In this document: positions 12,580 through 43,865 of the stretch, in pieces
How positions within the stretch are numbered: position 1 is the stretch's first letter
Layout: every line of letters starts with the position of its first letter
Assembly (NCBI RefSeq): GCF_000027125.1
Contig: NC_017626.1
Length of the DNA stretch: 64,000 nt
Direction: 5' to 3' (one strand)
Source of the DNA: Escherichia coli 042
Lineage (GTDB): Bacteria > Pseudomonadota > Gammaproteobacteria > Enterobacterales > Enterobacteriaceae
Notes under the pieces: generated by a model
Told to the model about the DNA's origin: nothing
The model's input: the letters and a program-made list of their open reading frames with translations, nothing else
Databases searched by the model: none
Translations under genes and position numbers: made by a program

Positions 12580-12615
12580 GCCTGATGCGACGCTCACACG
12601 TCTTATCAGGCCTAC
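12580..12615. repeat. REP (repetitive extragenic palindrome) element in cysI-cysH spacer
   Basis: GCCTGATGCGACGCTCACACGTCTTATCAGGCCTAC matches the enterobacterial REP consensus. Confidence 0.75.
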
Positions 12616-33221: not shown

Positions 33222-34535
<1,314 letters not shown>

Positions 34536-34607: not shown

Positions 34608-36260
<1,653 letters not shown>

Positions 36261-36472
36261 TTAGGTTGAAAAGACGATGGAATAACCAGGACGGGAAAGC
36301 AGTATACCCGAACATGACCTGTGCCACAAACTTTCATTATCCCTCCTCTTCGCCAGCGCACTATTGAAATCAGGAGTGAGAAAATAGCCCCTTTGGGGTA
36401 AATGTTTTTGACGCAAATCAAGCGCTTGTCATTTAAAAAATGACACAAATCGCGCTTGACCACGTAATTCCC

Positions 36473-37264
36473 TTAGAGATCAATTTCCTGCCGTTTTACC
36501 TGTTGCCAGACTTCTTCCATTGTTTCGAGGTCAACACCTGTCATTTCCAGTCCACGCGCGGCAACAATACGCTCCACTTCGCGAAAACGGCGCTCGAATT
36601 TTTCATTGGCTTTTTGTAGTGCAATCTCTGCTTTTGTCCCTAAATGGCGTGCCATGTTGACCGTGGCAAACAGCAGGTCACCCATTTCCTCCTCCAGTTT
36701 AGCCTGGTCGATAACAGCCTGCCGCGCCTCGTACATCACCTCGTCGATCTCTTCGTAGACTTTATCGACTACCGGACCAAGCGTCGTCCAGTCGAAACCA
36801 ACGTTGGCGCAACGTTTCTGGATTTTTTGCGCACGCATTAAAGCCGGTAAACTACGAGGAATATCGTCCAGCGCTGAATGCTGCGCTTTCTGCGCGCGCT
36901 CTTCGGTTTTGATTTGCTCCCAACGGGTAAGCACTTCACTACTGTTTTCGGCAGAACTGTCAGCAAAAACATGCGGATGGCGACGCTCTAATTTATCGCT
37001 AATAGCAGCGCAAATATCATTAAAGTCAAAGCGCCCTTCTTCCTGAGCCATTTGCGCGTAAAACACCACCTGGAATAGCAGATCGCCCAGTTCACCGCGA
37101 AGATCGTCAAAATCTTCACGGGCGATGGCGTCCAGCACTTCGTAGGTTTCTTCAAGGGTGTAAGGCGCAATGGTGGCAAATGTCTGCTCTTTATCCCACG
37201 GGCAGCCGTTTTCCGGGTCGCGCAGGCGCTGCATAATAGTGAGCAAACGGTCGATTTGATTCAT
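36473..37264 (-). CDS. mazG: nucleoside triphosphate pyrophosphohydrolase MazG
   Basis: 263 aa, MNQIDRLLTIMQRLRDPENGCPWDKEQTF... Confidence 0.95.
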   Translation of the reverse strand: MNQIDRLLTIMQRLRDPENGCPWDKEQTFATIAPYTLEETYEVLDAIAREDFDDLRGELGDLLFQVVFYAQMAQEEGRFDFNDICAAISDKLERRHPHVFADSSAENSSEVLTRWEQIKTEERAQKAQHSALDDIPRSLPALMRAQKIQKRCANVGFDWTTLGPVVDKVYEEIDEVMYEARQAVIDQAKLEEEMGDLLFATVNMARHLGTKAEIALQKANEKFERRFREVERIVAARGLEMTGVDLETMEEVWQQVKRQEIDL

Positions 37265-37359
37265 TGAATTGTCCTGAAAATTGCGGGTCTGTCAGGTGTA
37301 ATACCTTCGAGTAAAAGATATCGCTGGATACGGCTGACGCCATATCCAGCTATATAAGA

Positions 37360-39594
37360 CTAACTCCCGTGCAACCGACGCGCGTCGATAACATCCGGCA
37401 CCTGGTTGAGTTTACCCAGCACGCGCCCCAGCACTTGCAGGTTGTAAATCTCAATGGTCATGTCGATGGTCGCCAGTTGCTGTTTGGTATCGCTACGGCT
37501 GGCAACGCCAAGCACGTTCACTTTCTCATTGGCGAGAATGGTCGTGATATCACGTAACAACCCACTACGATCATTAGCCACCACGCGGACCACCAGCGAA
37601 TATCCGGCGGAGTAGCTCTCACCCCATACCGCGTCAACAATGCGTTCTGGCGCATGGGAGCGCAGTTCCGCCAGTTGTTCGCAATCGGCGCGGTGTACTG
37701 AAATACCGCGTCCCTGGGTAATGAAGCCGACAATCTCATCTCCAGGAATCGGCTGGCAGCAGCGCGCGATGTGGTGCATCAGGTTACCGACACCTTCAAC
37801 CACCACACGACCGTTATCTTTACTGCGGTTTTGCGGCGTATAGCTTTTTTGCTGAAGTTGCTTCAGCGCGGCGGCATCCTGCTCTTCGGCACTCGGCTTA
37901 TTAAATTGCGATTGCAGGAAGTTCACCATCTGATTGAGACGGATATCCCCGCCACCAATTGCCGCCAGCAACTCGTCGACATCATTGAAGTTGTAACGCG
38001 GCAGCAGATGTTTTTCTGCTTCTTTCAGGCTGATCCCCAGATGTTCCAGCTCGTCGTCAAGGATTTGCCGCCCAGCCAGAATGTTTTTGTCACGGTCCTG
38101 TTTACGGAACCAAGCGTGAATTTTCGAACGCCCACGGCTGGTTGTGACGTAACCGAGGTTTGGGTTTAACCAGTCACGGCTGGGGTTCGGCTGTTTCTGG
38201 GTGATAATTTCAATCTGGTCGCCCATCTGCAGCTGGTAGGTGAACGGCACAATGCGCCCGCCTATTTTTGCCCCGATGCAGCGGTGTCCGACATCACTGT
38301 GGATGTGGTAAGCGAAGTCCAGCGGCGTTGATCCCGCAGGCAAATCAACAACATCACCTTTCGGCGTAAAGACATACACCCGGTCGTCAAAGACCTGGCT
38401 GCGTACTTCGTCGAGCATTTCGCCGGAATCAGCCATCTCTTCCTGCCACGCAATCAGTTTACGCAGCCAGGCAATCCGGTCTTCATGTCCCGAACGTGCG
38501 CCGCCAGCAGCCGCGCCCTCTTTATATTTCCAGTGCGCAGCAACACCCAACTCTGCATCTTCATGCATCTGTTTGGTGCGGATTTGGATCTCAACGGTTT
38601 TGCCACCCGGCCCCAGAACCACGGTATGAATAGACTGATAACCGTTTGGTTTCGGGTTAGCGACGTAATCGTCAAACTCATCCGGCAGGTGGCGATAGTG
38701 AGTGTGCACTATCCCCAGTGCGGCATAACAATCCTGTAAACGCTCGGCGACAATACGTACCGCACGCACATCAAACAGCTCATCGAAGGCGAGGTTCTTT
38801 TTCTGCATTTTGCGCCAGATGCTGTAGATGTGTTTCGGTCGACCATACACTTCAGCTTTAACGCCTTCAGCTTTCATCTCAGCGCGCAGATGGCCGACAA
38901 ACTCTTCGATATAGTGTTCGCGGTCGAGACGGCGTTCATGCAGCAGTTTTGCGATGCGTTTGTATTCGGTCGGGTGGAGATAACGGAAGCAGTAATCTTC
39001 CAGCTCCCATTTCAGTTGTCCAATCCCAAGACGGTTCGCCAACGGCGCGTAGATATTGGTGCACTCTTTTGCCGCCAGTACGCGTTCATCTTCCGGCGCG
39101 TCTTTTACTTCGCGCAGATGAGCAATACGCTCTGCCAGTTTGATGACCACGCAGCGGAAATCATCGACCATCGCCAATAACATCCGGCGAACGTTATCGA
39201 CCTGTTCGGAGGAAACAGAATCGGTATGCGTCGCTTTCAGCTGGCGGATCGCCGCCATATCACGCACGCCGTGAATAAGGTTAACGACCGACTTACCGAC
39301 GCTCTCACGCAGCACATCTTCGCTGACTACGTTGGCATCCGCCAGAGGGAACAGCAGCGCCGCCCGCAGCGTGTCAATGTCCATACTTAATGTCGAGAGG
39401 ATCTCCACCATCTCAACACCACGCCACAATAACAGACTGGCATCCGGATGCCCCTGCGTCTGTTGCAGACAATACGCCCAGGTTTCGGCTAAGCACTCAC
39501 ACGACTTCTGGCTGGTAATACCCAGACTTGCGATCCATTTTTCCGGATCAAATTCACCAGCCTTATTGATATGTGCACTTCTTACCGCAACCAT
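37360..39594 (-). CDS. relA: GTP pyrophosphokinase, (p)ppGpp synthetase I
   Basis: 744 aa, MVAVRSAHINKAGEFDPEKWIASLGITSQKS...; RelA/SpoT synthetase domain with TGS and ACT C-terminal domains. Confidence 0.97.
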   Translation of the reverse strand: MVAVRSAHINKAGEFDPEKWIASLGITSQKSCECLAETWAYCLQQTQGHPDASLLLWRGVEMVEILSTLSMDIDTLRAALLFPLADANVVSEDVLRESVGKSVVNLIHGVRDMAAIRQLKATHTDSVSSEQVDNVRRMLLAMVDDFRCVVIKLAERIAHLREVKDAPEDERVLAAKECTNIYAPLANRLGIGQLKWELEDYCFRYLHPTEYKRIAKLLHERRLDREHYIEEFVGHLRAEMKAEGVKAEVYGRPKHIYSIWRKMQKKNLAFDELFDVRAVRIVAERLQDCYAALGIVHTHYRHLPDEFDDYVANPKPNGYQSIHTVVLGPGGKTVEIQIRTKQMHEDAELGVAAHWKYKEGAAAGGARSGHEDRIAWLRKLIAWQEEMADSGEMLDEVRSQVFDDRVYVFTPKGDVVDLPAGSTPLDFAYHIHSDVGHRCIGAKIGGRIVPFTYQLQMGDQIEIITQKQPNPSRDWLNPNLGYVTTSRGRSKIHAWFRKQDRDKNILAGRQILDDELEHLGISLKEAEKHLLPRYNFNDVDELLAAIGGGDIRLNQMVNFLQSQFNKPSAEEQDAAALKQLQQKSYTPQNRSKDNGRVVVEGVGNLMHHIARCCQPIPGDEIVGFITQGRGISVHRADCEQLAELRSHAPERIVDAVWGESYSAGYSLVVRVVANDRSGLLRDITTILANEKVNVLGVASRSDTKQQLATIDMTIEIYNLQVLGRVLGKLNQVPDVIDARRLHGS

Positions 39595-39641
39595 CGTCCT
39601 CTCCTTTAGGGACCAGACCTGCCGAAATCGGCAAATCGTAA

Positions 39642-40943
39642 CTATTTAACGCGCGAGAAAAGTACCATCGATTCCAGATGTCCCGTGTGTGGGAACATAT
39701 CCAGCATCGCCAGTCGCGCAATGGTATATCCTGCTTTTAATAACGCTTCGCTATCCCGAGCCAGCGTTGCAGGGTTACAGGATACATAAACTATACGAAT
39801 AGGTTCCAGTTTTATAATTTGCTGCATAACACCTGCGGCACCTGCTCGCGCGGGGTCCAGCAACACTTTATCGAAGCCGTTTTTCGCCCACGGCTGCTTT
39901 GTGACATCTTCTTCAAGATTTTCGTGATAAAACGTCACATTGTGTAAGTCATTAAGACGCGCATTCTGCTGGCCTTTTTCCACCAGCGCCGGAACACCTT
40001 CTACACCCACCACACTGGCAGCTTGTGTCGCCAATGGCAGTGTAAAATTGCCCATACCGCAGAACAGATCCAGTACGCGATCTTCAGGTTGTACATCCAG
40101 CCATTCCAACGCACGCGCTACCATTTTTTGGTTCACACCCGCATTGACCTGAATAAAATCGCGCGGGCTAAAAGTTAAGCGCAACCCGTTTGAGTCATAC
40201 CAGGGCATCTCACCAGAGACGGTTTCGAGTATCTCACTATCGGGGGCGAGATACAGATCCAGGCCTTCAGAATGCGAAAAGCGTTCCAGTTTTTCGCGAT
40301 CAGCCGAACTTAGCGGTGCGGTATGGCGCAAAATCATCAGCGTGCCGCTGGTTGCCTGTACCAGTTCAACATGACCAAGATGGCGCATAGCTTGTAAGCT
40401 GCCCAGGCATGCCCTGACTTTGGGCAGTAATGCTTCAAGTTGGGGCACTAAAATGGGGCATTGTTTAACGTCGACAATGTCACTGGAGCCCGCTTTGCGA
40501 AAGCCCATCTGAAGTTGCTGTGTTTTCGGTAAGTAGTTCAAACTTAAACGCGCGCGACGGCGATAGCCCCAGGGAACATCGGCGATCACTTCAGAGACTT
40601 CGTGTTTCATTAATCGGGCGAGTGCCGCACTTTTGCTTCGCTGCTGTAAATCCACGCTGGCGTGTTGTTGCTGACAGCCACCGCATACGCCAAAATGAGG
40701 GCAGAGTGGCGTTTCGCGTTCCGGGCTATCGCTTAACCGGCGCACGACTTTAGCGCGGGCGTACTGTTTTTTATCTTCAGTAACAGTAACTTCCGCGTTT
40801 TCCTGTGGCAGTAATCCAGGAATAAATAACGCTTTGCCGTTATGTCGTGCCACGCCCTGACCAAAAGAGTCGAGGTCGTTGACTGAAACAGTTATGATCT
40901 GACGCGTCGTCGTGCGTCGTTTTGCAGAGTAGAATTGCGCCAT
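39642..40943 (-). CDS. rlmD: 23S rRNA (uracil1939-C5)-methyltransferase
   Basis: 433 aa; TRAM domain plus Fe-S cysteines ([14 protein letters not shown]) and SAM methyltransferase fold. Confidence 0.93.
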
Positions 40944-43831: not shown

Positions 43832-43865
43832 GCCGGATGCGGCGATAACGCCTTATCCGGCCTAC
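43832..43865. repeat. REP element downstream of barA
   Basis: GCCGGATGCGGCGATAACGCCTTATCCGGCCTAC. Confidence 0.75.

Follow-up and report, generated by a model that had tools for sequence, protein, structure and literature searches.

In Escherichia coli K-12 the toxin-antitoxin genes mazE and mazF stand between relA and mazG, and a strain in which the two outer genes are direct neighbours raises the question of whether it has lost the module or never received it. We have addressed this question for E. coli 042 in a 64,000-nucleotide stretch of its genome (contig NC_017626.1; hereafter the window, meaning the whole of that stretch). An earlier note on this DNA, made from the sequence alone, had placed mazG about 95 bp from the relA stop and had left open whether the clean absence of mazEF was ancestral or had come about by precise loss. 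That mazEF is absent, and the relA-mazG operon intact, in many E. coli is already published and, among those who study toxin-antitoxin systems, of textbook standing. UTI89, for one, is without mazEF at this site (Fraikin, Goormaghtigh and Van Melderen 2020, PMC7167474), and the locus, the gene order and the absence of mazEF in strains of that type are the same as in the window. What we argue below is that the short spacer of the window is very probably the unoccupied, ancestral relA-mazG allele, and that the mazEF of K-12-type strains would have been inserted later, by horizontal acquisition, without ever reaching this lineage.

The genes on either side of the spacer offer little to tell the two alleles apart. 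On the minus strand of the window NCBIfam models give the order rlmD (39642-40943), relA, mazG, pyrG (34608-36245) and eno (33222-34520), with the features of the relA-mazG junction collected in Table 1. The RelA protein is identical to that of K-12 at all 744 residues and MazG differs from its K-12 counterpart at 3 of 263, which bears out the earlier description of both as K-12-like. At the DNA level relA and mazG (3027 bp in all) match strain Ecol_316 at 100% of positions, while the closest complete genomes (Ecol_316, THO-008, STN0717-11 and others) are only 99.6% identical to the window over 15 kb. The lineage of the window is nearest to ST393-type strains, and ST393 is a lineage of phylogroup D. 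Two of the genomes just named, THO-008 and STN0717-11, have been reported as ST393 (PMC8709547).

Table 1. Features of the relA-mazG junction of E. coli 042, in window coordinates.
Feature	Position	Strand	Basis or comparison
relA, GTP diphosphokinase, 744 aa	37360..39594	-	ORF list; NCBIfam NF008124 full length, 1678 bits
mazG, nucleoside triphosphate pyrophosphohydrolase, 263 aa	36473..37264	-	TIGR00444 MazG, NF007113
Whole relA-mazG intergenic region, 95 bp, short mazEF-less allele	37265..37359	-	sequence; K-12 interval 731 bp
Allele-specific 61 nt, in place of the K-12 697-nt mazEF segment	37299..37359	-	alignment to K-12
Private base, T (minus strand) at intergenic position 6; C in the other short alleles examined	37354	-	comparison with Ecol_316, L003, L004 and B2
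Hairpin, apparently REP-derived, 28 nt, 12-bp stem (one G-U), loop GUCA	37323..37350	-	folds; terminator-like match; relaxed REP pattern
GAUAUCUUUU tail 3' of the hairpin, imperfect U tract	37313..37322	-	tail of the sole terminator-like site in 36900-37800
mazG leader CACCTGACAGACCCGCAATTTTCAGGACAATTCA, both alleles; Shine-Dalgarno AGGA at 37272-37275, 7 nt before ATG	37265..37298	-	identical to K-12

The spacer measures exactly 95 bp (37265-37359), and nothing in it could supply the missing module. Directly 3' of relA there is no AbrB/MazE-type antitoxin ORF in 37265-37359, nor is there a PemK/MazF-type endoribonuclease ORF at the spacer; the only ORF that touches it encodes 50 aa and has no family match. 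This ORF (37191-37343, minus strand) starts inside the hairpin described below, runs across the start of mazG in a different frame, is without an NCBIfam match and is probably spurious. When the K-12 proteins were compared by tblastn with the whole 64-kb window, the best E values were 4.4 for MazE and 1.2 for MazF, neither of them a similarity, and no remnants of the mazEF cassette, such as the promoter/operator palindrome or the mazF 3' end, rose above shuffle level in the 95 bp. The clean absence first noticed from the sequence alone is thus upheld, both as a lack of MazE or MazF coding capacity in the spacer and as a lack of tblastn matches within 64 kb.

Comparison with K-12 locates the difference precisely. 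In MG1655 the relA-mazG interval is 731 bp, not about 95 bp, and has both mazE and mazF annotated, so the K-12 gene order given in the earlier note is right. Aligned to one another, the window and K-12 are identical as far as the relA stop codon and once more from 34 nt 5' of the mazG ATG, a leader that is also conserved in E. albertii and in two diverged genomes labelled E. coli to which we return below (L003 and L004). The K-12 locus therefore has in common with the window its RelA, a near-identical MazG, the boundary at the relA stop and the 34-nt leader, and differs in having 697 nt (the mazEF promoter/operator, mazE and mazF) where the window has 61 nt, and in having no stable stem-loop after relA. 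Compared on both strands, the 61 window-specific nt and the 697 nt of K-12 show no significant similarity, shuffled sequences equalling the score in 97/300 and 76/300 cases, and the difference between the two alleles reads as a replacement-type indel and not as a simple deletion. Two apparent extensions of homology were rejected. Matches between the hairpin arms and mazF-internal sequence in a MAFFT alignment were spurious, as local and global alignments and shuffles placed them at chance. On the mazG side, wider homology over the 24 nt from the hairpin to the leader, set against the K-12 mazF-mazG spacer, gave a score that 354 of 2000 shuffles also attained; since these 24 nt are not significantly similar, the shared boundary was kept at 34 nt before the ATG.

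Neither allele is a rarity. Among the 5426 complete genomes of E. coli, 5425 have the relA-mazG locus, and 5419 of these have one or other of the two alleles: the mazEF segment is found at the site in 4419/5426 (81%) and the short allele, recognised by the window-specific segment, in 1000/5426 (~18%), all matches being single-copy and chromosomal. The short allele of the window is real, ordinary and frequent. Among the few genomes with neither allele cleanly is E. coli SW07163 (NZ_CM129852.1); its mazEF segment matches in two places, the best covering only 55%, and this points to a mazEF that has been interrupted by an insertion or rearranged internally. The ST131 genomes have the short allele, and these and other B2 genomes carry the 95-bp spacer of the window with 1-3 differences, whereas the window itself stands in an ST393-type background, its flanks being about 97.2% identical to those of B2, and has its private base at 37354. 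Phylogroup B2 is polymorphic, since ST131 is short while UPEC 536 has the mazEF allele and NRG857c is a mazEF carrier (PMC7232551).

To establish the direction of the event it is necessary to look outside E. coli. A scan with MazG of one genome per GTDB species yielded 80 Enterobacterales loci, and in 79 of them the positions of relA and mazG could be fixed. None of these 79 species loci (0/79) has a homolog of MazE or MazF in the relA-mazG spacer, which is usually 60-130 bp long with a median of about 100 bp. Closer to the window are the two genomes labelled E. coli mentioned above, both with spacers of 95 bp: that of L004 (relA 96.6% and mazG 94.2% identical to the window in nucleotides) matches at 92/95 positions and that of L003 (relA 92.4%, mazG 90.9%) at 85/95. 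The latter is as diverged from the window as is E. albertii (relA 92.4% vs 91.1%).

E. albertii, which is commonly given a basal position in the genus, has a history of another kind at this site. In the type strain NBRC 107761 (L005 3740-4000) the relA-mazG spacer is 261 bp long and holds no mazEF genes, but it keeps the first ~38 nt of the K-12 relA-mazE spacer (29/33 identical, in the mazEF operator region) and, at its other end, the mazF 3' tail and the spacer downstream of it (9/9 and 55/58 nt identical to K-12). Where the genes would be, between the mazE-promoter end and the mazF tail, there are two canonical REPs. This spacer is a mazEF deletion scar, a degraded occupied allele. It resembles the window in having no mazEF genes and in having REPs in the spacer, and is unlike it in keeping the mazE promoter end of K-12 type and the 3' tail of mazF, neither of which the window has. 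The E. albertii spacer also shows a small internal deletion between the near-repeats TTAC(T)AACTCA. The scar means that mazEF is either old or crosses species by recombination, so that a single insertion inside E. coli is too simple a history, and in some lineages the empty allele could have been regained by recombination.

The ancestral site is favoured by four observations taken together: the outgroups without mazEF, the 95-bp allele in L003, the lack of any remnant in the window, and the contrast with the scar in E. albertii. Of the two histories offered by the earlier note, then, the ancestral state is the one that stands (on the outgroups, L003 and the missing remnants), and precise loss falls because the 61 nt are not K-12-derived. 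We regard it as scarcely credible that mazEF was once present and was excised cleanly to leave the 95-bp spacer behind. The bare fact that 81% of E. coli have mazEF here is all that speaks for such a deletion, whereas the 61 window-specific nt are no subset of the K-12 interval and thus are not producible by deleting K-12 sequence; moreover, the same 61 nt recur in lineages 3-8% diverged, the REP of the window matches REPs at the same position in other genera, and the sole documented loss, that of E. albertii, left promoter and mazF-tail remnants. In effect, the alignment to K-12 and the shuffle comparison refute precise deletion.

A mazEF-bearing ancestor might instead have lost the module through homologous recombination that imported an empty allele from another Escherichia lineage, a history that we consider quite improbable for the window although several observations would suit it. 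Both alleles occur within B2, with ST131 and UTI89 short and UPEC 536 and NRG857c carrying mazEF; the E. albertii scar means that the mazEF allele is very old or moves across deep lineage boundaries; and the highly conserved flanks provide ample homology for recombination. Against it, the flanks of the window are about 97.2% identical to B2 short-allele strains and about 97.6% identical to mazEF-bearing ones, and being no closer to short-allele than to mazEF backgrounds they give no sign of a recently imported tract, although this is a weak test. In addition, the relA and mazG of the window are 100% identical to those of a related complete genome, likewise a short-allele one, from its own clade. 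An unoccupied ancestral site therefore remains our preferred reading of the window.

The earlier note had further recorded a hairpin in the spacer, and it is indeed there: the string that was quoted, CTGGATACGGCTGACGCCATATCCAG, begins at 37324 on the plus strand, and on the transcribed minus strand the stem, with arms GCUGGAUAUGGC/GCCGUAUCCAGC (37350..37323), is longer than had been noted, at 12 bp. The hairpin is extragenic, with 9 nt separating it from the relA stop and 58 nt from the mazG start. A 42-nt piece containing it folds at -23.9 kcal/mol (z = -6.6, with 0/200 shuffles as stable), and the fold of the whole 95-bp spacer has z = -6.1. A scan of 36300-39800 against Rfam at a permissive threshold gave no match.

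What had been overlooked is that this hairpin is apparently REP-derived and not anonymous. Canonical REPs, beginning a few nt after relA, make up the spacers of Citrobacter, S. arizonae, Klebsiella and relatives (GTAGGCCGGAT...ATCCGGCCTAC), and canonical REP motifs are found in 16 of the 79 Enterobacterales relA-mazG loci. The hairpin of the window aligns with the GCCGGAT...ATCCGGC REPs that Citrobacter, Salmonella and Klebsiella have at this site, and also with the copy in L003, ACGTAGCCGGATACGG...CCGTATCCGG, in which the GTAG foot and the CCGG stem are intact. Set against the REP family consensus GCC(G/T)GAT...ATC(C/A)GGC, it matches in a relaxed pattern only (GCTGGAT...ATCCAGC), its stem having CTGG/CCAG in place of CCGG. 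The GTAG/CTAC foot of REPs is missing as well: the window has TATAG and other E. coli have CATAG, with CGTAG in L003, so that L003 reads CGTAG-CCGGATACGGTGTCAGCCGTATCCGG where (C/T)ATAG-CTGGATATGGCGTCAGCCGTATCCAG stands in the window and in every other E. coli copy. Since L003 keeps CGTAG, the ancestor would have had the REP foot and the copy in the window would have decayed. Judged by its sequence, the hairpin thus appears to be a decayed REP-derived element; without the GTAG foot it is not filed as a canonical REP. Like Y-type REPs between tandem genes, it is a GC-rich imperfect palindrome just 3' of a gene, and unlike them it has an ATAG foot instead of GTAG, a compensated change of a C-G to a U-A pair, and a single copy within the window. 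A search of the window with blastn-short found no second copy of the exact hairpin variant, while the relaxed core pattern finds REP-like palindromes elsewhere in the window at 12580, 19084, 43832, 57846 and 63458.

The comparison with L003 also bears on whether the fold itself has been maintained. Five stem substitutions separate the two copies and all of them keep pairing, one being a compensated U-A vs C-G exchange and three going to or from G-U; the three wobble pairs would form in the mRNA sense only. With one diverged sequence the covariation is not significant (97/500 shuffles reach it), and selection on the structure is therefore not claimed as proven. The private base at 37354, the sole difference between the window and Ecol_316 in the relA-mazG region, is 3 nt before the hairpin, in the former REP foot region, and none of the 1000 short-allele genomes has 100% identity to the window over 67 nt. 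On the other allele, K-12 (L002 2409-2420) reads TAG followed by GCCGAAAT, giving TAGGCCG, a 7-mer of the REP foot GTAGGCCGGAT seen after relA in Citrobacter and Klebsiella; the match could be what is left of the REP displaced by mazEF, or it could be due to chance.

Whatever its origin, a structure at this position is not peculiar to E. coli 042. A stem-loop with a minimum free energy of -15 kcal/mol or lower, in the first 60 nt or less after relA, is present in 67 of the 79 Enterobacterales loci, and z is -2 or lower in 54 of the 79; a stem-loop after relA is thus the rule in Enterobacterales, whatever the sequence family. When the folds 3' of relA are ranked, the window comes 10th of 81 and K-12 75th of 81, the K-12 sequence folding at -8.5 kcal/mol with z = -0.4. 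The K-12 allele, it appears, replaced a stem-loop that is otherwise usual after relA.

How might this arrangement work? With relA and mazG as same-strand neighbours across a 95-bp spacer, and AGGA 7 nt before the mazG ATG, the two genes would be co-transcribed from the relA promoters; by analogy with REPs between tandem genes, the hairpin would protect the 3' end of the upstream relA mRNA and would partly attenuate read-through into mazG, which would be translated from its conserved Shine-Dalgarno sequence. Given co-transcription and partial attenuation, mazG would depend on read-through and not on the mazEF promoters that K-12 has. In experiments, a REP between tandem genes has been found to act both as a partial, leaky and partly Rho-dependent terminator and as a stabiliser of the upstream mRNA (bioRxiv 10.64898/2026.03.23.713779). 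In mazEF-less strains relA-mazG has been described as an undisturbed bicistronic operon (PMC7167474), whereas mazG of K-12-type strains is driven together with mazEF (PMC5120126). The review of the mazEF-less strains contains no description of the REP-derived hairpin in the spacer (PMC7167474). On this analogy, the probable effects of the hairpin are to make relA mRNA more stable and to lower read-through into mazG. A further effect is conceivable from the 2015 work of Liang, Rudd and Deutscher, in which REPs within ~15 nt of a stop codon reportedly cut the output of the upstream gene via ribosome stalling.

It could be argued that the hairpin is chiefly an efficient Rho-independent terminator of the relA transcript, with mazG forming a unit of its own under its own promoter. 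The structure has much of what such a terminator needs: a 12-pair stem with 7 G-C pairs and a 4-nt loop, followed by GATATCTTTT, which together make the only terminator-like site in 36900-37800, a very stable fold, and a tail, GAUAUCUUUU, that is identical in L003, L004 and the B2 strains. The U tract, however, passes the loose rule of the scan while being interrupted (UAUCUUUU) and offset from the stem, its run of four U beginning 6 nt after the stem, and intrinsic termination may for that reason be weak. Nor does the promoter that mazG would need come forward. The only candidate downstream of the hairpin, considered and rejected, is CTGACA-16-GACAAT at 37295..37268; it has 9/12 matches and occurs at chance frequency (1 found vs 1.0 expected); it ends 3 nt before the ATG, too near to leave room for a Shine-Dalgarno sequence on the transcript. 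With relA-mazG described as a bicistronic operon in such strains (PMC7167474) and REPs as generally leaky, partial terminators (bioRxiv 10.64898/2026.03.23.713779), we hold efficient termination to be unlikely and prefer attenuated read-through.

The horizontal origin proposed for mazEF would be in keeping with what is known of such modules and of this site. Chromosomal toxin-antitoxin systems show an uneven distribution and are subject to horizontal transfer (Fiedoruk et al. 2015; Ramisetty and Santhosh 2016, as summarised in PMC7167474), and in Salmonella the relA-mazG spacer is occupied by parDE (PMC7167474). We find parDE in the relA-mazG spacer of Superficieibacter sp. 1612_C1 also (L019 3066-4000; Pfam ParD_antitoxin 1.2e-18, ParE_toxin 1.3e-11), and in that of Buttiauxella agrestis ATCC 33320 (L041 2210-3997) a 1.8-kb cassette that looks like a type VI effector/immunity islet, coding for one Hcp-like protein (T6SS_HCP 1.9e-20) and one with DUF4225 (9.9e-47) and having a small membrane ORF besides. 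Both cases add to what is on record of the spacer as a hotspot. A third locus (L017 3051-4000) has a 112-aa hydrophobic ORF between relA and mazG with no Pfam match, seemingly like the small ORF of the Buttiauxella cassette. Relatives of mazEF at about 65-69% nucleotide identity occur in 142 plasmid records, of which 110 are conjugative. A near-identical plasmid donor of the K-12 mazEF was not found among the plasmid records, where the real relatives reach only about 65-69%; PLSDB entry NZ_OL790696.1, a 99.4% match to the K-12 mazEF segment, is a 4.8-Mb E. coli chromosome filed as a plasmid. To judge from these similarities, the plasmid-borne relatives and the other cargo at the site support a horizontal origin of mazEF.

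A parallel is provided by folA-apaH, where ccdO157 is present in some E. coli and REPs occupy the site in strains without it (Mine et al. 2009, in the account given in PMC7167474). The two loci are alike in having a type II toxin-antitoxin module in some strains and REP sequence in others; they differ in being distinct loci with distinct toxin-antitoxin families.

It is a more speculative reading, and one we think possible but doubtful, that the two alleles also differ in the expression of relA and mazG, with a REP-derived stem-loop in the one and the mazEF promoters in the other; the predicted effects of the stem-loop are stabilising of relA mRNA, attenuation of mazG and possibly an influence on the termination of RelA translation. 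A weaker corollary is that REPs could mark landing sites for small selfish cassettes, as at folA-apaH. No REPs border the insertions in L017, L019 and L041, and these insertions in other genera thus give no general support for REP-targeted insertion. Elsewhere in the window a canonical REP with a CTAC foot (43832-43861) lies just downstream of barA, and in several close relatives (e.g. E. coli A10, L086 13899-15247) IS1397, a REP-targeting insertion sequence, is found between barA and gudD at the position of that REP.

To what is already published on this locus our analysis makes modest additions, namely the direction of the event, the apparent REP origin of the hairpin, the scar in E. albertii and the stem-loop 3' of relA that seems to have gone in the K-12 allele, and these may be of use to work on the mobility of toxin-antitoxin systems and on strain differences in the expression of stringent-response genes. 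Should the alleles differ in expression as tentatively suggested, the roughly 18% of E. coli with the short allele, ST131 and ST393-type strains among them, would have a post-transcriptional control of RelA and MazG other than that of K-12, and the cross-species polymorphism implied by the E. albertii scar and the empty allele of L003 could be kept partly for that difference. More generally, the relA-mazG locus illustrates how chromosomal mazEF can be regarded as accessory cargo inserted into a conserved operon, and its accessory nature bears on the long dispute about a core role of mazEF in physiology, tied to relA and ppGpp.
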